The notes: generated from the sequence alone by a model not told the origin. 64,000 nucleotides of DNA from an uncultured Bacteroidales bacterium (GCA_964469155.1 CAYXXU010000006.1:7591-71590); one strand, 5' to 3'. Numbered from the stretch's first letter, positions 10,545 to 61,914 are shown. Program-made: numbers and translations.

Positions 10545-11177
10545 ATGGCTCCATTAGATTCAGATTTGAAGTACCGTGCATTGGTTGTAATTGGAATGCC
10601 CAAAAAAGTGAACGACTATATTCCCTGGGCAATAGCCACGCACGACAAAATGAAGGCAAACCCGCGTTTTGCAGCTTTACTGCCCAAGCTGGCCACCTTT
10701 GAAACGGATACAAAGAACCTGCGCGATGCACAAAATGGCTGTACTTCAAAGCCTCCTACCGTAAGCACCGAAACCCGAAACTATTATTGGAGATTAAGCA
10801 AAACCGATATCAGGATTCTGAAAGTCAATGTACAGGAAATGGCCGACCTTGACCCACGAAATGCTTCGGTTATAATTACAGATGCCGGTTTTGAAGTCAA
10901 ACAGGTGGCTATACGTCATAAGCAAAAAAACATGGCGGTTGATGGAGCCGAGGAAGGCGAAGTGAAATTGATTGCCGCAGGTCGTGGTCCTCACAACTGG
11001 CGCGTGAGCTATGACCAGGAAAACTGGACCGTACTATTAGCCAGCAAAACCAGTTTAAAAATATCCAAAGGCAATACGCCCGGCGAGGTGCTGTATTTTC
11101 AGAACAGCTTGCTGGTTGATGAAAGCAAATCGCCTGAATGGAGCCCAAGCATCAGGGTCGTAGTTAAAAAACATTAA
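10545..11177 (+). CDS. Hypothetical protein, helical N-domain plus FN3-like C-domain
   Basis: TACATTTG promoter at 10506-10513 before ATG 10545; beta-rich C-terminus with NWRVSYD..W, TPGEVLYF, EWSP. Confidence 0.75.
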   Translation: MAPLDSDLKYRALVVIGMPKKVNDYIPWAIATHDKMKANPRFAALLPKLATFETDTKNLRDAQNGCTSKPPTVSTETRNYYWRLSKTDIRILKVNVQEMADLDPRNASVIITDAGFEVKQVAIRHKQKNMAVDGAEEGEVKLIAAGRGPHNWRVSYDQENWTVLLASKTSLKISKGNTPGEVLYFQNSLLVDESKSPEWSPSIRVVVKKH

Positions 11178-11270
11178 TTGGTTTTACGGTAAGATTTTAG
11201 TCTCAGATTGTTCATGAGAGTGCAGACAAATCCAATGCCTGCTTGCTGATTTTTTATTGTAACAACCTAC

Positions 11271-11501
11271 TTTCAAATTACCGAACCATCATTTCAATTC
11301 ACCGAAGGATCGTTTCAAATCATCGAGTGGTCGTTTTAAATTACCAAAGGGTTGTTTTAAATCATCGAGCAGTCGTTTTAAATTACCGAACGATCATTTC
11401 AAATCACCGAACGCTCGTTTCAAATCATCGAGTGGTCGTTTCAAATTTCCTAAGGGTTGTTTACAATTTCCGAACGATCGTTTTAAATCACCGAACCTAA
11501 A
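11271..11501. repeat. Tandem array of about 11 x 21-bp units, consensus TTTYAAATCACCGAACGATCG
   Basis: Units at 11271, 11292 ... 11481 with no indels. Confidence 0.9.
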
Positions 11502-11730
11502 AATGAAATCACCGAGCCTTAATTTAAAATTTAGTAGCGATGATGTAAAACTAAGGCATTGGGATGCATTGGGAGGCATGATGAGCAGAAGGGTGAAAAG
11601 AAGTTAAATAAAATCCACTTTGAATGATTTGTTGAAATGTTTTTCTTCTTTTGAGGTATATATTTTGTCGATGAAGTTTGTCAAAGAATAGGAGGAAGTG
11701 AGTAGTTGATAACGAATAGTTAATAGTTTA

Positions 11731-19618: not shown

Positions 19619-19716
19619 TGAGCCACTGGCCATGAGCCAATAGCTAATAGCCATGAGCCAATAGCCACAAGCCATGAGCCACTTGCCACGAGCCATAAGC
19701 CATGAGACAATAGCCA
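19619..19716. repeat. 14 x 7-bp tandem repeat (NNAGCCA)
   Basis: tgagcca ctggcca tgagcca atagcta atagcca ... read directly. Confidence 0.9.
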
Positions 19717-19737
19717 CATTAGAGTGAGTGTGCGATT

Positions 19738-20010
19738 GCGCACAAGGCATCGACAATTGCGCACAGGGGTTGTACGGTCGCGCACAAGGGTGGTGCAGTT
19801 GCGCATGACGGTGATGCAGACGCGCACAAGAGTGATGCAGCGGCGCACAGAGGTGATGCAGTGGCGCACGAGGTATCGACATGACACTTTGTCATAGTTG
19901 CAGGAAACTTTGTCATAGATGCAGTCGCGCACAAAGGTGATGCAGTCGCGCACACGACCGATGCGGTTGCGCACAGGGGTGATGCAGTCGCGCACAAGAC
20001 CCGTGCAGTC
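19738..20010. repeat. Tandem array of 13 x 21-bp units, consensus GCGCACAAGGGTGATGCAGTC
   Basis: Units at 19738 ... 19990; units at 19885 and 19906 diverge but keep the register. Confidence 0.92.
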
Positions 20011-27370: not shown

Positions 27371-27616
27371 GAGGTCAGGGGGGTGAGGGTTTTGGGGGAC
27401 GCAAATCAGTACAAAGAAATAAAATTAGTCATTACTAATGAAAAAAGAGGGTGAAAAAAAGGAGAGGGAAGACAGAAGACCGAAGTCAGGAGACTGGAGA
27501 AAGAAGAGTAGATGCGGATTCATTATTAGGATAATGATTTTGCGTGGATGATTTATTATGATGAAGGGATGGTATAACATTGGGATATTTTGTAATTTTA
27601 TAAAAATTTTAGTTTC

Positions 27617-33313: not shown

Positions 33314-33368
33314 TCAGTTAACGGTAGGATAATTTCAGTTAACGGTAGGTTTTTGCCAGTTAACGGTA
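33314..33368. promoter_or_regulatory. Three CAGTTAACGGTA direct repeats at 21-bp period, LytTR-type operator
   Basis: Copies at 33315, 33336 and 33357; resemble the AgrA-type ACAGTTAAG-N12 box. Confidence 0.65.
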
Positions 33369-38192: not shown

Positions 38193-38222
38193 AAAAGGCC
38201 TGCCGGATTGGCGGGCCTTTTT
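38193..38222. terminator. Bidirectional intrinsic terminator
   Basis: AAAAGGCCTGCC-GGATT-GGCGGGCCTTTTT between convergent genes. Confidence 0.85.
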
Positions 38223-38254: not shown

Positions 38255-38995
38255 CTACCAAATCAATCCCGACCAGGGTTGGCTAAAGGGCCCGAAGGTT
38301 TTCCTGCTGCCTTTAAAGCGTTTGCGGGCCAAATACCACGCACGCATGCCTTCCTGTTCAGCATCAAATATTCGGATGTAGTATCCCCTCTTCACTTCAC
38401 CATCGAAAGTAAATTCCTTTACATCAGGGGCCGTTTTCACCGAAGCTTCTTTCACCACCAGGTACACTTCAATGGCATCCACCCCTATGTCGAGCCCTTT
38501 ATGATTGGCACCGGGAGTCATAACGCTGCTTCGGTGCATCAAATGTTTCATCCGGGCTATACCTCCCTCCACACTTACATTGTGACCCGCGCCATCGGCC
38601 CCCGAAGCAGGAGTTTTAATCAGATCAGGAATCCTGAGGCCCATATCTGATTTTTGTGCATCGGTCACCAATGGATTGTTGCGCAAGTACCGGCTGATGA
38701 ATAAGCGCAGGCTGGTATCAGTCGGAATGTCTTTTTTGCCGAATTCATAGGCCTTGCGTGCGCTATTTTTCCGTTGGGTATCCGCCTGATCAAATATTCT
38801 GCTTGCCACCCTGGGCCATGCACTGTCCCACTCCTGCTTTTTTTTGCCGGGGGTATTGGTCAGCAGCACCCATTCAGTTAGTGCGGCAGGTGTAAGGTCC
38901 CAACCGGCCATATACACGTTGGCCCGGGTTACAAAATTATTCTGCCATTCGTTGAACGACAGGTCGGAATGAGGGATAAAGTCTTTTCTAACCAT
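38255..38995 (-). CDS. Hypothetical protein, helical N-domain plus FN3-like C-domain
   Basis: DFIPHSD..F..W..NF, NP.VTD.QK..MGL, C-terminal AWY.AR..GPFSQPW. Confidence 0.78.
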   Translation of the reverse strand: MVRKDFIPHSDLSFNEWQNNFVTRANVYMAGWDLTPAALTEWVLLTNTPGKKKQEWDSAWPRVASRIFDQADTQRKNSARKAYEFGKKDIPTDTSLRLFISRYLRNNPLVTDAQKSDMGLRIPDLIKTPASGADGAGHNVSVEGGIARMKHLMHRSSVMTPGANHKGLDIGVDAIEVYLVVKEASVKTAPDVKEFTFDGEVKRGYYIRIFDAEQEGMRAWYLARKRFKGSRKTFGPFSQPWSGLIW

Positions 38996-39190
38996 GATGT
39001 TTTTGCTTTAGAAATTCGAAATTCAATAGCCAAGTCAGATGCTATGAAAAACGGAATAAAGATAATACATTACCTGATAATAATTACTGAATTTAGCCAG
39101 GATTTTTCAACAACCATTTGCAAACCACTGATATTTAATCGCGAAGCATCACTATCCAGTCGTGAAATTATTATAATAATACGTAAAATT

Positions 39191-39400
39191 GCTACCTGAT
39201 GATATCAGGTAGCTACCTAATTATATCAGATCATACCCTGATTAATTTATATTACGGTATGTATTTATTATATAATGCTCTTGTATTATCATATCGTAAC
39301 CTGTAATTTTTATATAATGGTCTGATATTTTCAGGTTTTAACCTGTTATATTTAGATTATTATCTGTATCAATCAGGTTGTGATCTGATTTATACAGGTA
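39191..39400. repeat. Degenerate array of 10 x 21-bp units with palindromic ACCTGA-N5-TCAGGT core
   Basis: Units at 39191, 39212 ... 39380; (C/T)CTG at positions 5-8 in 7 of 10 units and CAGGT at the unit end in 4. Confidence 0.7.
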
Positions 39401-39510
39401 GGAATAATTGTGAACGAGACTGCTTTGATGGGTTTGTGTAAATGAATTACAATATCTGAAGTACCTGAAGCAATCAAAACAATTGAGGCACTTCCTGAAA
39501 GTCTTGACAC

Positions 39511-40125: not shown

Positions 40126-40287
40126 TAAGCTATTTTAAGAAAAAACCACGGAGACACTGAGGACACGAAGTTGCACGGAGATATTTATCATTATAACAAT
40201 ATGACAATTTAGCCCTATACACAAAATTTTGTGCCCCTACATCATCATTCGTTATTCACTATTCGTTATTCGTTATTCACTATTCAC

Positions 40288-40494
40288 TTACTTATGAATA
40301 GCTCTGTCCACCGCTTCAAACCCGGCTTCCATAAATATTTCCGAAACGGTAGGGTGGGCATGAATGGTTTGCGAAATATCAAAAATGGTACCCTCGATCT
40401 GCATATAGGCAGCGGCTTCGGCAATCATATCGGTGGCGTGGTCGGCAATGATCTGCACGCCCAGCACCTGCCCGAACTGCTTGTCGGAAAACAT
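40288..40494 (-). pseudogene. lpdA: C-terminal fragment of dihydrolipoamide dehydrogenase
   Basis: GQVLGVQII..HATDMIAEA..IHAHPTVSE (HPTxxE dimerisation motif); in-frame stop immediately upstream, FAD/NAD domains absent. Confidence 0.8.
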
Positions 40495-40714
40495 TCAGCA
40501 AAAAAATGCTGGTGGTTAAATAAAAATTACGACTGCTTCTGAAAATGCAATAATATCAAATAAAAGATGGGAAGACTGCCTTCATCCGTCAGCCGACGGA
40601 TGTGTTCCCCTTGTTTAACCCATAAAACAAAAAATGCGAAGCCCAACACTTCGCATCTTTTATTACATCCTAAACCTTACTTCGGTCTCCGGTCTTCCGT
40701 CTTCGGTCTTCCTC

Positions 40715-41803
40715 TCATCCCTTATAAAACGGAAACTTAACCACCTTTGCCTTGATCAGCTTCTCGCGTATCTTCACATAGATCTCGGTGTCGACTTTAG
40801 CAAAAGCAGTTTTCACATAGCCCATGCCAATGTTTATTCCCAACGAAGGAGCCATGGTGCCTGAGGTAACTTCGCCTATCAGGTTGCCTTCGGCATCGCA
40901 AATCTCGTAATAATGGCGGGGAATGCCGCGGTCTATCATTTCGAAACCCACCAGGCGGCGCGTAGTACCTTCGGTTTTGTGTTTCAGGTTGAGTTCCTTG
41001 TCAATAAAATTCTTTTCTTCGGTAAATTTGGTAATCCAGCCCAGCCCAGCTTCAATGGGCGAGATGGTATCGTTTATGTCGTTGCCATAGAGGCAGAAAC
41101 CCATTTCCAAACGCAAAGTATCGCGGGCGGCCAGGCCTATGGGTTTGATGCCGTATTCTTTTCCGGCTTCCATCACGGCTTTCCACATCACTTCGGCGTA
41201 TTCATTAGGGAAATAAATTTCGCAACCACCCGAACCCGTATAACCGGTGGTAGAGAACAATACATTGTCCACTCCGGCAAACTTCAGCACTTTAAAGGTA
41301 TAATATTCCATATCGGTTACCGTGGTATCGGTGAGTTTCTGCATGGCTTTCAAAGCCAAAGGACCCTGAATGGCTAATTGAGAGGTCTCGTCCGAAGCAT
41401 TGGTCAGCTTCACACCGAAAGTATTGTTTTGGTTCACCCAGGCCCAGTCTTTGTCGATATTGGCAGCATTAACTACCAGCAGGAATTTTTCAGGACCAAA
41501 GCGATACACCAGCAGATCGTCCACAATGCCACCCTTTCCGTTGGGGAAGCAAGAATACTGTATCTTGCCGTCCCATAGCTTGGAGGCATCATTCGAGGTT
41601 ACATACTGAACAAAATCCAGAGCCTTTGAACCTTCTACCCAAAACTCCCCCATGTGCGACACATCGAAAACGCCCAGTGCCTTACGCACAGTTTCGTGTT
41701 CAATAATTAATCCTTCGTATTGAATCGGCATATAAAATCCGGCGAATTCAACCATTTTTGCTCCGTTTGCTTCGTGAATGCTGCGAAATGCTGTACTTTT
41801 CAT
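40715..41803 (-). CDS. gcvT: Glycine cleavage system aminomethyltransferase T
   Basis: [43 protein letters not shown]. Confidence 0.96.
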
Positions 41804-48002: not shown

Positions 48003-50453
48003 ATGAAATTTTCTGCTATAATTGTATTACTGCTTCTTTGCATTACTAACATTCATGCACAGAATAAAAAGGCCAGGGCAACCAGGCTCTCATTTCCACC
48101 AGCCATTGATGGAGTTTTGGATGATAATGTTTGGAAGAGCTGCGATACCATTGATGATTTTACCCAGTTTGTTCCTGTATACAATGTCAAACCTTCGCAA
48201 AGGACAGTGGTTCGTATAGGATATGACGACAATGCCATTTATATTGCCGCCATGATGTACGATTCGGCCCCCGATAGCATTCTTCGCGAACTTGGCAGCC
48301 GCGACGACGATCTGAATGCCGATAAGATTTGCGTGCAGTTCGACACCTATAACATGCAAACCGATGCCTATACTTTTATGGTCTATGCCTCGGGAGTGCA
48401 GTTGGATTATCGTATCAACGATGGCACCTACAATGCCGTATGGCAAAGTGCGGTCAATATTTCCAATAAAGGCTGGTCGTGCGAGATGAAGATCAATTAC
48501 TCTGCCTTGAGGTTTCCCAAAGAGAAAGAGCAGAAGTGGGGTATGCAGATCTTCCGGGGCATTCGACGACATCGTGAAGCCGATCAGTGGTCGCTGGAAG
48601 TGAAGGGGCAGTCCAATTTCCTGGTGAATTGGGGTCAGTTGGAGGGGATAAAAGAGGTGAATCCTTCGCTCAGGCTTTCGCTCACACCTTTCATTTCTCT
48701 TTATGGAGATCATTATCCTTATAACGAAACCGGAAAAAGTAATTTTTCCTACTCCTTCAGCGGAGGTCTCGACCTGAAGTATGGTATCAATGAGAGCTAT
48801 ACCCTCGATATTACCCTCTTGCCCGATTTCAGCCAGGTTCAATCAGATTACCCTGTGAAGAATATCACGGCGTTTGAAACGGTGTATGAAGAGTACAGGC
48901 CTTTCTTCAAAGAGGCCATTGATCTTTTCAAGGAAGGAGATCTGTTCTATACCCGCCGCATAGGACGCACTCCGGAACATTATTATGATGTGAACGATTC
49001 TCTCGTACCGGGCGAGGTAATTAAAAAAAACCCCGGGCAGGCCAAGCTGATCAATGCTGTAAAATTCTCAGGCCGAAATAAGAAGGGCACTGCTTTTGGC
49101 CTTTTCAACGGCATCACCAACAATATGTATGCAATCATTGAGGACTCTTCAGGCAACACCCGAAAGATTCTTACGGAACCCCTTACCAATTATAATGTCT
49201 TTGTTTTCGACCAGATTTTAAAGAATAATTCTAAAATTTATCTGGTAAACACCAGTGTGCTGCGTACCAAAAAATATGATGATGCTAATGTTTCGGTGGC
49301 AGGCCTGGTATTGAACGATAAGAAGAACAAATTTCAGGTGTCGGCTCAGGGAGGCATCAGCCTGAAATTTCATACCACCGATGCTTCCTCCCGCGATTTC
49401 GGGAACACATTGGGTTATAAATATTCGTTGTTTGTGGGTAAAGTTAGCGGGAAATTTCAGTGTAATGTTTACCGCAACGAAATGAACCATACCTGGGATG
49501 CCAATGATATGGGACTAACTTTGCAAAACAACCGCACTACCACCGGATTTCAGATGGCATATAATATTTTTGAGCCTTTCTGGAAACTTCGCAATATGTA
49601 CTCAAACATGAGCGTGTATTATATTGAAAATTTCCTGACCAAAAGAGTGGAGGAATTTCAGATAGAACTCAGCAATAATTTTACCACCAATAAATACCTG
49701 ACCATTTGGGAGAGTTTTAGTGTGAGCCCTTTGTTGGTGCACAATTTTGCAGAGACCCGAGTGCCTGGCCGTTATTTTGTGGTTGATCGCTGGTATTATG
49801 CCAATGTGGGCTTTTCATCTGATTATCGCAGGCTTTTCGCTTTGGATATGAGTTCCGATTATTGGCAGGATATCAATGGCGACGGACAGTATTATAGTAT
49901 CAATACCAGCCCTATTTTCCGCCTCAGTAAGAATTTCCTTTGCATACTTTCCAATAACTATAGCGAAAGCTTTAATGATGTCGGATTTGCCGATATGGAT
50001 AATCTGAACAATATTATTTTTGGTAAACGCGATATCACCACGGTAGTGAATCAACTCAAGGCCCGTTATATGTTTAGAAACAATCTCTCGCTGACCCTTA
50101 GCGTCCGACATTATTGGTCGAAAGGACGCTATTCTGAGTTCTACAAACTGAATAACGACGGTATGCTGATTACCGATCCGCTTTATTTTAACGACAGAAA
50201 TCACGATTTCAATTTCAATGCTTTTAATATCGACCTGATGTTTTACTGGGAATTTGCCCCCGGAAGCAGCCTGAATATTACGTATAAGAACAATATAGGG
50301 AAGGACGATGTGGTGGTGAATCCATCATATTTCAGAAATTTTGGCGACATCTTTGCCGAAAAACAGCTAAATTCGCTCTCGATTAAGGTGCTGTATTACC
50401 TCGATTATCAGAATGTGAAGAAGGCCTTGAGGAAAAAGAGAGTTGGGAGTTAG
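48003..50453 (+). CDS. CBM9-like plus DUF5916 outer-membrane protein
   Basis: P.IDG.LDD..W N-domain, GLDLKYG..LD.T..PDFSQV, E.RPFF.E, LFYTRRIG. Confidence 0.85.
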   Translation: MKFSAIIVLLLLCITNIHAQNKKARATRLSFPPAIDGVLDDNVWKSCDTIDDFTQFVPVYNVKPSQRTVVRIGYDDNAIYIAAMMYDSAPDSILRELGSRDDDLNADKICVQFDTYNMQTDAYTFMVYASGVQLDYRINDGTYNAVWQSAVNISNKGWSCEMKINYSALRFPKEKEQKWGMQIFRGIRRHREADQWSLEVKGQSNFLVNWGQLEGIKEVNPSLRLSLTPFISLYGDHYPYNETGKSNFSYSFSGGLDLKYGINESYTLDITLLPDFSQVQSDYPVKNITAFETVYEEYRPFFKEAIDLFKEGDLFYTRRIGRTPEHYYDVNDSLVPGEVIKKNPGQAKLINAVKFSGRNKKGTAFGLFNGITNNMYAIIEDSSGNTRKILTEPLTNYNVFVFDQILKNNSKIYLVNTSVLRTKKYDDANVSVAGLVLNDKKNKFQVSAQGGISLKFHTTDASSRDFGNTLGYKYSLFVGKVSGKFQCNVYRNEMNHTWDANDMGLTLQNNRTTTGFQMAYNIFEPFWKLRNMYSNMSVYYIENFLTKRVEEFQIELSNNFTTNKYLTIWESFSVSPLLVHNFAETRVPGRYFVVDRWYYANVGFSSDYRRLFALDMSSDYWQDINGDGQYYSINTSPIFRLSKNFLCILSNNYSESFNDVGFADMDNLNNIIFGKRDITTVVNQLKARYMFRNNLSLTLSVRHYWSKGRYSEFYKLNNDGMLITDPLYFNDRNHDFNFNAFNIDLMFYWEFAPGSSLNITYKNNIGKDDVVVNPSYFRNFGDIFAEKQLNSLSIKVLYYLDYQNVKKALRKKRVGS

Positions 50454-50582
50454 GAGTTTGGAGTTTGGAGTAAAAAATATTCAATGTTCAATAATCAATG
50501 TTCAACTTCCAATGCTCAAAGAATTTCCTCGCGGCCTTACAGTCTAACAGCCTAAAAGTCTAAAGTCAAAAAGCCTACAAAA

Positions 50583-51275: not shown

Positions 51276-51662
51276 ATGATAATAATAAGTGACCTGATTA
51301 CGGTTGAAGAGTGCGCTAAACGTTGCAAGGTGCAGCCGCGCGCCATTTATGCAAGGTTGAAAAACGGAACAATTTCCGGAATTCGTATTGGTAACTATGC
51401 TTTTGTGAATCCCCTTTCGTCGCCTCCCAAGCGAGTTATGAACGAATTTGATAATCTGCATGTGCCTCCCTATAAGCTTCCTGATAATTTGAAGCCTGCT
51501 GACCTGATATCGCTTGGCACTTTTGTACATAAAAAAAAGATGCGGGGCGACTGGATCTATACCCAGGCCATGCTCGGAAAACTGCGTTCGGTGATAATCT
51601 GTGAGGTGGTTTTTGTGCCTTTATCTGAGGCAGAAGAGATTCTGAAATATAAGCCAAAATAA
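51276..51662 (+). CDS. Small protein with two tandem Xis/MerR-like winged-HTH modules
   Basis: LITVEECAKRCKVQPRAIYARLKNG.I..IRIG..AFV and LISL..F..KK.M....IY.....GKL..V.I..V.FV. Confidence 0.6.
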   Translation: MIIISDLITVEECAKRCKVQPRAIYARLKNGTISGIRIGNYAFVNPLSSPPKRVMNEFDNLHVPPYKLPDNLKPADLISLGTFVHKKKMRGDWIYTQAMLGKLRSVIICEVVFVPLSEAEEILKYKPK

Positions 51663-51765
51663 AACCGAATTTCTATACACTACTTTCACAATTTAACTTT
51701 TCATCGAAAAAATGCAGTAACGCTCAGTCAATGACTAAACAGTAAAAAATGTGAAAGTATTCGTA

Positions 51766-52007
51766 TGTACACCGGATGACCCCGGAAATTTTCTGAAGTC
51801 ATTGCCTGCACACTGGCATACTTTCGGAAAATTTCTGATGTTATTCTTTGTACACCGGCAGGCGTCCGGAAAAAATCTGAAGTTATAACGGGTACACCGG
51901 CATACGCCCAGGAAATTTCTGATGTTATCCCATGTTCACTATCATACGTTCGGAAAATTTCCGGAGTCGTCCAATGTCCAAGAACATACGTTCGGAAAAA
52001 ATCCGTT
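51766..52007. repeat. Tandem array of about 5.5 x 42-bp units
   Basis: Units at 51783, 51825, 51867, 51909, 51951, 51993; consensus CGGAAAATTTCTGAWGT-N9-TACACCGGCATACGTT. Confidence 0.85.
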
Positions 52008-54178: not shown

Positions 54179-54325
54179 AATGACCACTTTTGACCATCAA
54201 TGACTATTAATGACCACTAATGACAATCAATGACAATCAATGACAATTAATGACCATCAATGACTACTAATGACTGCTAATGACTATCAATGACTATTAA
54301 TGACAATCAATGACTATTAATGACC
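54179..54325. repeat. 15 x 10-bp tandem repeat AATGACNNYY
   Basis: TGAC falls every 10 bp from 54181 to 54321; followed by TAAAAGCC/TAAAAGTC run to about 54365. Confidence 0.95.
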
Positions 54326-59339: not shown

Positions 59340-59612
59340 GGAAGACGGAAGTCCGAAGACCGGAGAAGGAATTTGAAAATTATACAATTATACAATTTGA
59401 AAATTAATTAACCGGCTGCATGTAATAATGACTATTAATGACAACTAATGACCATAAATGACAATGAATGACAATGGATGACAATAAATGACCATCAACC
59501 TGTCCCGTACATAAAATGTCGGGATGACCATTAATGACGACCAATAACCATTTCCTAAAAGTCTAATAACCTAAAGCCTAAAAGCCTAAAGTCAAAACCC
59601 CTAAAAGCCTAA
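59340..59612 (+). repeat. Ordered mosaic of short tandem repeats
   Basis: GGAAGAC 7-mers, then AATTTGAA/AATTATAC 8-mers, AATGAC 10-mers (with 26-bp hairpin insert), AAAGCCT/AAAGTCT run. Confidence 0.85.
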
Positions 59613-59615
59613 CCC

Positions 59616-60779
59616 ATGTCAAAGATCCTTATAATCGACGATGAACGCAGCATCCGCAGTACCCTGCGCGAGATATTGGAATACGAAAAATACCAGGTCG
59701 ACGATGCCGCCGATGGTGCCGAAGGTCTGCAATGTGTCGACAAAGAAAAGTACGACGTCATTTTGTGCGACATCAAGATGCCCAAAATGGACGGTGTCGA
59801 TGTCTTGAAAGCCATCATTCAGAAAACCGATACTCCTGTCGTCATGATATCCGGCCATGGAAACATCGAAACCGCTGTCGAATGTATCAAACTCGGCGCT
59901 TACGATTATATTGCCAAGCCCCTCGATCTCAACCGCCTTTTGATAACCCTGCGCAATGCCCTCGACAAATCCTCCCTCATCACCGAAACCAAGGCCCTCA
60001 AAAAGAAAGTCAGCAAAACCTGGGAAATGGTCGGCGAATCTCCGGCCATTCGCCGCATCAAGGATATGATCGAACGCGTGGCTCCCACCGATGCCCGTGT
60101 GCTCATCACCGGCGGCAACGGCACCGGCAAAGAACTCGTCGCACGCTGGCTCCACGAAAAAAGCAACCGTTCCGCATTTCCTTTCATCGAAGTCAATTGT
60201 GCGGCCATCCCCTCCGAACTCATCGAAAGCCAGCTCTTCGGCCACGAAAAAGGGTCCTTCACTTCGGCCATCAAGCAGCGCAAAGGCGATTTCGAGCAAG
60301 CCGACGGCGGCACCATCTTTCTCGACGAAATCGGCGACATGTCTCTTTCAGCCCAGGCCAAGGTATTGCGTGCCCTGCAGGAAAACAAGATCACACGCGT
60401 TGGCGGAGAAAAAGACATACCCGTCAACGTGCGTGTGCTGGCTGCCACCAACAAAAACATTCCCGAAGAGATCGCCGCCCACAACTTCCGCGAAGACCTC
60501 TACCACCGTCTCAGCGTCATACTCATCGAGGTCCCCGCCCTCAGCGAGCGCACCGACGACATCCCCCTCCTGGTCGATCATTTCGTCCGCGAAATCTGCC
60601 AGAGTCAGGGCAGCCCCCTTATCCGCGTACAGCCCTCCGCCCTCGACGAACTTAAAAAGATACCCTGGACCGGCAACATCCGCGAACTCCGCAACGTCGT
60701 CGAGCGCCTCATCATCCTCTGCGACCGGGAAATCACCGGTGAAGATGTCAAAATGTACGCCCACCCCTTACGTCGGTAG
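59616..60779 (+). CDS. Sigma-54-interaction-domain response regulator (receiver plus AAA+), no obvious HTH
   Basis: Receiver (ILIIDDE, CDIKMP), GGNGTGKE, FLDEIGD, WTGNIREL; GSFTSA in place of GAFTGA. Confidence 0.92.
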   Translation: MSKILIIDDERSIRSTLREILEYEKYQVDDAADGAEGLQCVDKEKYDVILCDIKMPKMDGVDVLKAIIQKTDTPVVMISGHGNIETAVECIKLGAYDYIAKPLDLNRLLITLRNALDKSSLITETKALKKKVSKTWEMVGESPAIRRIKDMIERVAPTDARVLITGGNGTGKELVARWLHEKSNRSAFPFIEVNCAAIPSELIESQLFGHEKGSFTSAIKQRKGDFEQADGGTIFLDEIGDMSLSAQAKVLRALQENKITRVGGEKDIPVNVRVLAATNKNIPEEIAAHNFREDLYHRLSVILIEVPALSERTDDIPLLVDHFVREICQSQGSPLIRVQPSALDELKKIPWTGNIRELRNVVERLIILCDREITGEDVKMYAHPLRR

Positions 60780-60961: not shown

Positions 60962-61089
60962 GTCAATCATCCTCAAATCCTGACAGGGTGACTATGAAAA
61001 GGCATGTGTGTAGGAAATCCACCCTGTCAATAACACAAATGTCCCAATTGTTCCACTAAATTTCTTATAAAATTACATAACCGACCGCT

Positions 61090-61236
61090 ATGTTGCAAAA
61101 TCCTTACGCCATGTTGCTAAATCCTTAAGCCATGTTGCAAAGACCGTACGCCAAGTTGCGGAGACCGTACGCCAAGTTGCTAAATCCGTGCGCCAAGTTG
61201 CAAAGATCGTGCGCCATGTTGCAACAACCGTGCGCA
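61090..61236. repeat. Tandem array of 7 x 21-bp units, consensus AWGTTGCAAADWCCGTRCGCC
   Basis: Units at 61090, 61111 ... 61216 with no indels. Confidence 0.92.
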
Positions 61237-61285
61237 AGTTTCTAACTCCAAACTATCGGCATTCCGAACTCCAAACTTCTATTTA

Positions 61286-61373
61286 ATGTCGCCCCGCTGG
61301 GGCTTTTGGTTTGGGGTGGCCAATTAACCACGGGCGATGCCCGTGGCTACCAATATGTCGCCCCTCTGGGGCT
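61286..61373. repeat. REP/BIME-like element
   Basis: ATGTCGCCCCNCTGGGGCT at 61286 and 61355 flank palindrome CCACGGGC-GAT-GCCCGTGG (61328-61346). Confidence 0.8.
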
Positions 61374-61477
61374 GTTAAACTTCAAACTTCATCATTCCTT
61401 GTTCGATAACTTGTCCGCACACGAAGTGTCGGAATTCGATATTTCTTCAAATATCTTCTCAGTGCTCCTTTGTGTTC

Positions 61478-61696
61478 TTAGTGTCTTCGTGGTTTTTCTT
61501 CGGTCTTCCGGCTTCGGTCTTCCAACTTCCCAATCTTCTCCAATTCCTTATAAAACCCGCATTCGCCACAGTCGGAGGAGCAACCTCCGCAGATGTCATC
61601 TTTTTTGGGCTTGCGGCGGAAGCGTTTCACAATCAGATATAAGGCTGCTGCGAGGGCTGCAAAGAAAATAGCGAGTGTAATAATAAGTTGTGTCAT
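61478..61696 (-). CDS. FeoB-associated Cys-rich membrane protein
   Basis: Single TM then CGGCSSDCGEC; directly downstream of feoB. Confidence 0.8.
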   Translation of the reverse strand: MTQLIITLAIFFAALAAALYLIVKRFRRKPKKDDICGGCSSDCGECGFYKELEKIGKLEDRSRKTEEKPRRH

Positions 61697-61699
61697 TTT

Positions 61700-61914
61700 T
61701 TTTAGGCTTGAGACTTTTTGGTGTTAGACTTTTAAGCTCTTAAATGTCAATAGTAGTCGTTGATAGTCATTTATTGTCATTAGTTGAACAGGGTTAACAA
61801 TGTAACAATAAAACAATGTAACCATTCATTCTTCCCTTCTTCCTCTTTTATTTTCAAATTTTCAAATTGTATAATTTTCAAATTCCTTATTCGGTCTTCG
61901 GACTCCGGTCTTCC
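61700..61914 (-). repeat. Ordered mosaic of short tandem repeats (same module order as 59340-59612)
   Basis: Minus strand: GGAAGAC 7-mers, AATTTGAA/AATTATAC, ATTGTTAC, AATGAC 10-mers, AAAAGTCT/AAGCCT. Confidence 0.8.

Follow-up and report, generated by a model that had tools for sequence, protein, structure and literature searches.

ParR of plasmid R1 belongs to the small ribbon-helix-helix proteins. Each of the ten phased iterons that surround its promoter is occupied by one ParR dimer, and the gene is thereby autoregulated (PMC2241845); the specificity of ParR–parC pairs is described as differing between related plasmids (PMC9426499). This cooperative, autoregulatory binding by dimers takes place on plasmids at direct repeats of 11 bp, and the actin-like ATPase ParM is always present. 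In the F plasmid, sopC has 12 copies of a 43-bp repeat, and each copy contains an inverted repeat. TubR–tubC is described as forming a ring-like segrosome (PMC6009700). In both SopB–sopC and TubR–tubC, a centromere-binding protein covers a set of tandem repeats and thereby builds a higher-order complex; the periods are 43 and 12 bp, the binders are HTH or winged-helix proteins, the NTPase is ParA or TubZ, and the carriers are plasmids or phages. Iteron–Rep origins (R6K, pSC101, P1) contain 17–22-bp repeats spaced about two turns apart beside the gene for their binder, and iterons co-vary with the Rep protein that binds them. These iterons are direct repeats, occupied by winged-helix Rep monomers and accompanied by DnaA boxes and an AT-rich unwinding region, and they too are found on plasmids. 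Type III toxin–antitoxin systems (ToxIN, CptIN, TenpIN; see PMC8860590) combine a ToxN-type endoribonuclease toxin with 2–6 copies of a 34–45-nt repeat that forms a structured RNA. LytTR sites are 9-bp repeats with a 12-bp spacer, i.e. 21 bp centre-to-centre on one face of the DNA (PMC2766830). They comprise two, rarely three, direct repeats, and the binder is a LytTR domain.

The locus described here lies in a 64,000-nt stretch of DNA from an uncultured Bacteroidales bacterium (the window), and it consists of a gene for a 246-aa protein with an array of ten 21-bp units upstream (Table 1). Gene and array constitute one two-part module that is real, conserved and apparently undescribed; the literature on 21-bp intergenic arrays in bacteria yielded no description of this module. 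ParR on parC is its closest working analogy, as about ten helically phased repeats lie directly upstream of the gene for the putative binder in both systems. The module differs from ParR–parC in having a 246-aa protein with helical and FN3-like domains, a chromosomal location and inverted half-sites with a period of 21 bp. The window locus has no ribbon-helix-helix protein (the protein is composed of six helices and an FN3-like sandwich, with no Pfam match), and no NTPase partner (ParM, ParA or TubZ) was found near the 246-aa gene. None of the SopB- or TubR-type traits given above (repeat period, HTH or winged-helix binder, NTPase, plasmid or phage carriage) was found in the module. The 21-bp period does fit the 17–22-bp range of iterons; unlike iterons, most units are inverted (the only cases in which direct repeats prevail are the array of the related locus L014 and parts of that of L016), plasmid homologs are lacking and the composition is that of the native chromosome. 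No Rep initiator (winged-helix, Rep_3-type) beside the array was recognised with Pfam or NCBIfam, and fold searches returned FN3-like matches only. As in type III toxin–antitoxin systems, a stand-alone array lies immediately upstream of one gene, and repeat and protein diverge together; the period of 21, the roughly ten copies, the absence of an RNA-structure signal and the unrelated protein set the module apart, and neither Pfam nor PADLOC matched a ToxN/AbiQ/CptN/TenpN-type toxin at the locus. The 21-bp spacing is common to LytTR sites and the window array, whereas the 246-aa protein has no LytTR match in Pfam and its units are mostly inverted and number about ten. CRISPR-type unique spacers are absent from the window array, in which the units abut. 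Membership fails for ParMRC, iteron–Rep, type III toxin–antitoxin, LytTR and CRISPR systems alike.

Table 1. Positions of the features in the window and in related loci, and half-site patterns of the arrays. Locus names precede positions outside the window.
Feature	Position	Strand	Basis or pattern
Gene, 246-aa basic protein	38255-38995	-	ORF listing, homologs
N-terminal six-helix domain, residues 1-122 (helices 11-117)	38630-38995	-	AlphaFold
C-terminal FN3-like beta-sandwich, residues 143-246	38258-38569	-	AlphaFold, DSSP, Foldseek
AT-rich spacer, array to start codon	38996-39190	-	Read from sequence; 30% G+C
Gene-proximal unit, perfect 10-bp inverted repeat	39191-39213	-	Repeat listing, terminator scan
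Array of ten 21-bp units	39191-39400	.	Autocorrelation, repeat listing, unit profile
Second gene-array pair, gene	10545-11177
Second gene-array pair, array	11264-11536
Second gene-array pair, related loci	L012 1630-1900; L013 4750-5020
Further two-turn arrays	641-955; 11264-11536; 19630-20009; 33320-33361; 51758-51967; 61087-61254
7-bp repeat runs	27460-27507; 40247-40288; 40680-40716; 50440-50505; 59341-59366; 61498-61529; 61890-61913
Half-site pattern, window			ACCTGA-N5-TCAGGT
Half-site pattern, L003			GTAG-N4-CTAC
Half-site pattern, L007			GTTY-N4-AAAC
Half-site pattern, L009/L018			AGGGA-N2-TCCCT
Half-site pattern, L010			AGGGG-N-CCCCT
Half-site pattern, L014			ATCGGCAYAAATGAG
Half-site pattern, L021			TACCG-N5-CGGTA
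Half-site pattern, L024/L025			TACTGA-N2-TCAGTA
Half-site pattern, L028			TTCGTA-N6-TACGAA
Half-site pattern, L029			TAAACA-TGTTTA

A sequence-only reading of the window had resolved the AT-rich region upstream of the gene into ten 21-bp units, and autocorrelation bore this out. Identity at lags of 21, 42 and 63 was 0.58 (z = 8.6), 0.58 (z = 8.0) and 0.54 (z = 6.0), respectively, relative to 1000 dinucleotide-preserving shuffles, none of which matched the observed identity at any lag. The lag-21 signal persisted when the wider region from 39000 to 39510 was analysed (z = 7.2). The + strand unit consensus is roughly nnnACCTGAtnatatTCAGGTn. Tandem Repeats Finder reported only a 42-bp sub-period between 39260 and 39354, so that cryptic, the word first used for this array, is a fair label. 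The inverted repeat ACCTGA-TGATA-TCAGGT that had been noticed in unit 1 is exact (ACCTGATGATATCAGGT, 39194-39210, 0 mismatches). Four further units of the array contain the corresponding pattern with 2 mismatches, and the whole 64-kb window contains 9 matches to it versus 1.6 expected. The outer units are well preserved and units 3–6 are degenerate; the unit profile is palindromic when compared with column-permuted profiles (p = 0.002). The G+C content is 28% in the array versus 43% in the whole window. The ORF listing agrees with the earlier statement that no ORF of ≥60 aa spans the array: the array shares 9 nt with a 76-aa ORF, and its far end is overlapped by one of 45 aa.

The gene had been placed about 200 bp from the array, with the array upstream; the start codon at 38995 of this minus-strand gene confirms the arrangement and gives a gap of 195 bp. 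Within this spacer the gene strand contains a 7/8 match to the Bacteroidota -7 promoter box (TATCTTTA, 39058-39065), which may be the promoter of the 246-aa gene, as well as two copies of TCAG(G)TA that resemble half-sites (39071-39094). Inspection by eye identified no sigma-54 GG-N10-GC match between the array and the gene. The gene-proximal unit of the array, GCTACCTGAT-ATC-ATCAGGTAGC followed by AATTTTA on the gene strand, looks like a terminator. The gene upstream of the array is lipoate-ligase-like.

The 246-aa gene is real and conserved. Its product is basic (pI 9.6), as are its relatives (pI 8.6–9.8), and it has 18 close homologs with 41–100% identity, nearly all of which are 243–247 aa long. 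A profile search of 1.84 billion representative proteins extended the family to at least 441 clusters at 50% identity (E < 1e-3), most of them about 220 aa long, and the initial designation as an orphan gene has to be given up in favor of a superfamily. Neither the protein nor 50 distant relatives had a match in Pfam, NCBIfam, PHROG or PADLOC, and PDB sequence searches with three profiles gave no match. Phage or plasmid origin of the gene was considered and rejected, since no relatives were present in IMG/VR, INPHARED or PLSDB, which cover phages, viral contigs and plasmids; tblastn returned nothing in 72,556 plasmids. The G+C content and GC3 of the gene are those of neighboring genes, and the neighbors themselves (an M4 protease with a T9SS tail, the lipoate-ligase-like gene and gcvT) point to a Bacteroidota chromosome. 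The protease gene and the 246-aa gene are convergent, and in the gap separating them is a G+C-rich hairpin, GGCCTGCC-GGATT-GGCGGGCC (38197-38222), flanked by A-runs and, on the opposite side, by T-runs. This hairpin looks like a bidirectional terminator; the terminator consensus scan did not list it.

The AlphaFold model of the whole protein (pLDDT 82) and Foldseek agree with the helical N-terminal part and FN3-like beta C-terminal part that had been proposed. The N-terminal domain, which includes the invariant segment DTSLRxFIxRY, was predicted with similar confidence when modelled alone (pLDDT 84, pTM 0.75). Foldseek comparison of this domain with the PDB revealed no fold match (best E 3.6). 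Residues 123–136 form a linker that is variable and of low confidence in the model. The C-terminal domain has seven strands by DSSP, with the sandwich spanning residues 143–244 in the model, and it matched titin and cytokine-receptor FN3 domains in Foldseek with a probability of 1.0 and target-relative TM-scores of 0.5–0.68. It also matched phage FN3 domains in a viral structure library, and searches with the whole model gave generic FN3 matches only in the PDB and that library. As the domain has no Pfam fn3 sequence match, the likeness to FN3 is at the level of the fold only.

Loci of relatives of the 246-aa protein were taken from metagenomes and MAGs. Upstream DNA of at least 300 bp was available for 13 independent loci, each of which has an array ahead of the gene; three further, truncated contigs start inside such an array, giving 16 independent loci in all. 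The array-bearing set includes four relatives with only 23–27% identity to the window protein. The arrays contain 9–15 units of 21 bp (42 bp in L019) and end 25–200 bp ahead of the start codon. When the same detection rule was applied to 68.5 kb of flanking DNA from these loci, no other lag-21 array was found. The neighbors are housekeeping genes and vary among the loci, with the exception of P0004, a 76%-identical ortholog that keeps the lipoate-ligase-like gene and a 509-bp gap. No conserved partner gene was identified, and the downstream ORFs of the loci L001 and L007 are mutually unrelated. As neighbors are not conserved, the 246-aa gene is the sole element inherited together with the array. 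The co-occurrence, the turnover of neighbors and the lack of other arrays in the flanks indicate that gene and array are inherited as a unit. The neighborhood survey that had been suggested thus upheld the proposed gene-array association, the array being kept in each relative with readable upstream DNA while the genes around it were replaced. The array, its period and its symmetry are established, as is its strict and specific co-occurrence with the gene across the superfamily.

Three of the loci also have a non-coding block of about 150 nt directly upstream of the array (L009 258-378, L010 2390-2515, L018 1310-1430). The block is nearly invariant although the proteins are only 46% identical, and its last part, TGTATATTTGCAGCAG, includes a TAnnTTTG promoter box. 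No Rfam match reached the gathering score, and almost all pairs in the predicted fold of the block are unvarying.

The information in a unit resides mainly in a mirrored pair of blocks, each of 4–6 bp; the unit center and a 4–9-bp AT-rich spacer are variable. The units abut head to tail without spacers, and the period is 21 bp whatever the length or spacing of the half-sites, the sequence of which changes from lineage to lineage (Table 1). Reverse-complement symmetry of the unit profile was significant in 13 of 15 arrays (p < 0.05 versus column-permuted controls). In L016, distal units have one half-site, proximal units have the opposite one and central units have both, indicating that half-sites can also stand singly at 21-bp spacing. 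Two pairs of orthologous arrays, L009/L018 and L024/L025, in which the proteins are 88–89% identical, were used to compare substitutions. Substitutions occurred at 10 of 162 positions in core columns versus 38 of 237 elsewhere (Fisher p = 0.003), a test that is slightly circular because the core columns were partly defined from the same arrays. Third codon positions of the gene differ by 14% between L009 and L018. This pattern of substitutions shows the half-sites to be under selection, as judged from the aligned arrays.

It is highly improbable that the array is a neutral minisatellite, or an eroded heptad-repeat coding sequence, in a long intergenic region. Such an origin would suit a period equal to seven codons, the presence of another window array (658-949) within an open frame that would encode 14 KGVVTSL heptads, and the fact that gene callers put ORFs over several homologous arrays. 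It would leave unexplained why the array keeps its position down to 23% protein identity despite replacement of its sequence, and why half-site columns are conserved both within arrays and between orthologous arrays. In addition, no open frame runs through the whole window array and no such arrays occur elsewhere in the flanks. Copy number was also stable over years of sampling: the window array was identical, with 0 indels, in wastewater metagenome contigs of 2020 and 2024, and five metagenome assemblies contained no copy-number variation. The neutral origin is disfavored.

Selection on a periodic palindrome could act on DNA or on RNA. The arrays lack the signatures of RNA structure. Among 113 deviations from consensus in mirrored columns, 105 affected a single arm and 8 affected both arms (3 compensatory), compared to 11.8 double deviations predicted by independence. 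The single-arm changes comprised 31 that yield G.U pairs in the sense RNA, 25 that yield G.U pairs in the antisense RNA and 49 that break pairs on both strands. In only 5 of 13 arrays was the sense RNA more stable than the antisense RNA, and Rfam did not match the window array. As the constant 21-bp unit corresponds to two turns of B-DNA and the RNA-structure tests were null, recognition of double-stranded DNA on one face of the helix is favored. The data thus favor, at the level of sequence comparison, a two-fold symmetric binder on double-stranded array DNA rather than a role as RNA.

The opposite reading, in which the array is an RNA like a type III antitoxin or a protein-sponge RNA, transcribed together with the gene or just ahead of it and holding the protein in check through its hairpins, is quite unlikely. 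The tandem array does lie directly upstream of a single stand-alone gene in unrelated chromosomal contexts, each of its periodic palindromes could in principle fold as a hairpin, and the gene-proximal unit of the window array resembles a terminator. The best Bacteroidota -7 box (TAnnTTTG) is just upstream of the array in L009, L010, L018, L019, L021 and L025, and the L014 array abuts the start codon and reaches the ribosome-binding site of the gene; such arrays may be transcribed. However, an exact TAnnTTTG box lies between the array and the gene in L004, L007 and L016, and compensatory arm changes, a G.U strand bias and greater stability of the sense strand were not found. Every array has a period of exactly two DNA turns, including those beside unrelated genes, and the 246-aa protein matches neither ToxN-type toxins nor PADLOC models, with Rfam likewise empty.

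Returning to recognition of the array as DNA, nothing but the adjacent gene travels with the array, which makes the product of this gene the most economical candidate for the binder. Our inference is that the array is bound by the protein encoded next to it, in dimeric form, and that this binding regulates the promoter. The helical and FN3-like protein would recognize the short inverted half-sites of the array upstream of its own gene. As each unit is exactly two turns of B-DNA, about ten dimers could line one face of the DNA, and these would sit side by side over approximately 210 bp. The resulting nucleoprotein complex would be cooperative and would control at least the gene's own promoter. 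Half-site specificity would turn over fast from one lineage to the next, with no change in the 21-bp geometry or the copy number. The basic character of the proteins and the precedents set by ParR and LytTR sites are in keeping with this model. That the 246-aa protein binds its own array in this way, cooperatively as dimers on one face and with autoregulation as the minimum consequence, is in our judgement an evenly balanced proposition.

Several observations count against the binding model. The N-terminal domain has no PDB match and the C-terminal domain is an ordinary FN3-like sandwich. Four proteins are associated with arrays with GGGR...YCCC-type cores, and no residues specific to these four were found; no specificity-determining positions could thus be named. 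No unit-like sites were present outside the arrays within 1.5 kb, and the window gave no regulon signal or extra operator sites beyond chance. The loci in which the array may be transcribed, and the further 21-bp arrays of the window that are not beside a family member, likewise speak against it. The protein is put forward as the candidate binder rather than assigned that role because no known DNA-binding fold, group-specific residues or extra sites came to light. A wider reading is that the family represents an undescribed, widespread class of sequence-specific DNA-binding proteins that combine a new helical fold with an FN3-like domain, with about ten dimers on a phased array beside their own gene, in a chromosomal module that has no plasmid, phage or NTPase partner and in which recognition diversifies while geometry is fixed. 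This reading is possible, if somewhat short of an even chance.

An alternative in which the array is a cis element read by a dimeric factor encoded elsewhere, with the 246-aa gene being only the regulated gene, is unlikely. It draws on the same lack of a recognizable DNA-binding fold and of specificity-determining residues in the 246-aa family, on further 21-bp arrays in the window that adjoin unrelated genes, and on LytTR, for which phased 21-bp sites are known and a gene of which lies near the second family in L012 and L013 (see below). Yet the half-sites differ in almost every lineage and only the adjacent gene is co-inherited with them, such that a factor encoded elsewhere would need to co-evolve with the array in each genome while always targeting the same family. 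With regard to LytTR, the units are mostly inverted rather than direct and are present in about ten copies rather than 2–3. The probability left over from the four readings (the autoregulatory binding of the protein to its own array, the factor encoded elsewhere, the RNA and the neutral repeat) belongs to something that we have not considered.

If the 246-aa protein does bind the array, it would represent a new DNA-binding fold, and the module would be a new chromosomal counterpart to the centromere and operator arrays of plasmids, one that occurs in hundreds of mostly uncultured lineages and has no annotation anywhere. With a constant 21-bp geometry and half-sites that change fast, these modules would then provide a natural set of orthogonal protein-DNA pairs, useful for studies of recognition co-evolution and possibly as components in synthetic regulation. 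Should another protein be the binder, the strict pairing is still the first functional handle on the family, which numbers at least 441 clusters. Cryptic, degenerate intergenic 21-bp arrays can be conserved functional elements, and standard repeat finders mostly miss them.

The sequence-only reading had likened the 246-aa protein to the product of a second gene, at 10545-11177, and had taken the two gene-array pairs in one window as support for a real association. The likeness did not hold at the sequence level, as BLASTP between the two proteins gave E = 3.6, hhalign gave a probability of 0.2–0.3% in two runs and the HMM of the 246-aa family found no second member in the window. The two sequences share only a short DYIP motif close to the N-terminus. 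The recurrence of gene-array pairs stood: the second protein has its own family of 11 homologs, and in homologs with about 70% identity the gene is likewise followed by a terminator, a 21-bp array and a phosphoglucomutase-like gene, in this order, the downstream array having the core ACCG-AA-CGGT (ACCGAACGGT). A 123-aa LytTR-domain gene lies just upstream in L012 and L013 but not in the window.

At least six more intergenic arrays of 21 or 42 bp with unrelated unit sequences occur in the window (Table 1). This density is far above that in the flanks of the homologous loci (none in 68.5 kb), and the source genome seems unusually rich in two-turn arrays. As several 21-bp arrays lie away from family members, the genome may use such arrays more generally, and the pairs of arrays with small genes for unrelated proteins hint at a broader class. 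A 160-aa ORF on the minus strand (618-1100) runs through the 658-949 array and would encode a hydrophobic N-terminal segment followed by the approximately 14 KGVVTSL heptads; its neighbors are a DUF6660 gene and heavy-metal-associated (HMA) domain genes. A 128-aa protein encoded at 51276-51662 has a weak HTH_17 (excisionase-type) match that is below the Pfam cut-off (E = 0.044), and its gene ends about 100 bp before an array with a 42-bp period and CCGG-N7-CCGG-like inverted repeats (51758-51967). These two may be a third gene-array pair. The response-regulator/sigma-54-activator gene at 59616-60779 encodes REC and AAA+ domains, with no DNA-binding domain recognized by Pfam, and about 300 bp downstream of it is a 21-bp array (GCCAWGTTGCAAA..., 61087-61254). 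The ORF that follows this array (61306-61671) is unlike a real gene.

Shorter repeats are present as well. The intergenic regions 54179-54324 and 59426-59492 contain 10-bp units with a 30-bp super-period (TGACTATTAA and TAATGACAAT, respectively), which is another periodicity the size of a helical repeat. Runs of 7-bp direct repeats, e.g. CTTCGGT, GAAGACC, GAGTTTG and TATTCAC, lie near gene ends (Table 1) and recall the intergenic heptamer repeats described for Beggiatoaceae in PMC4679880.
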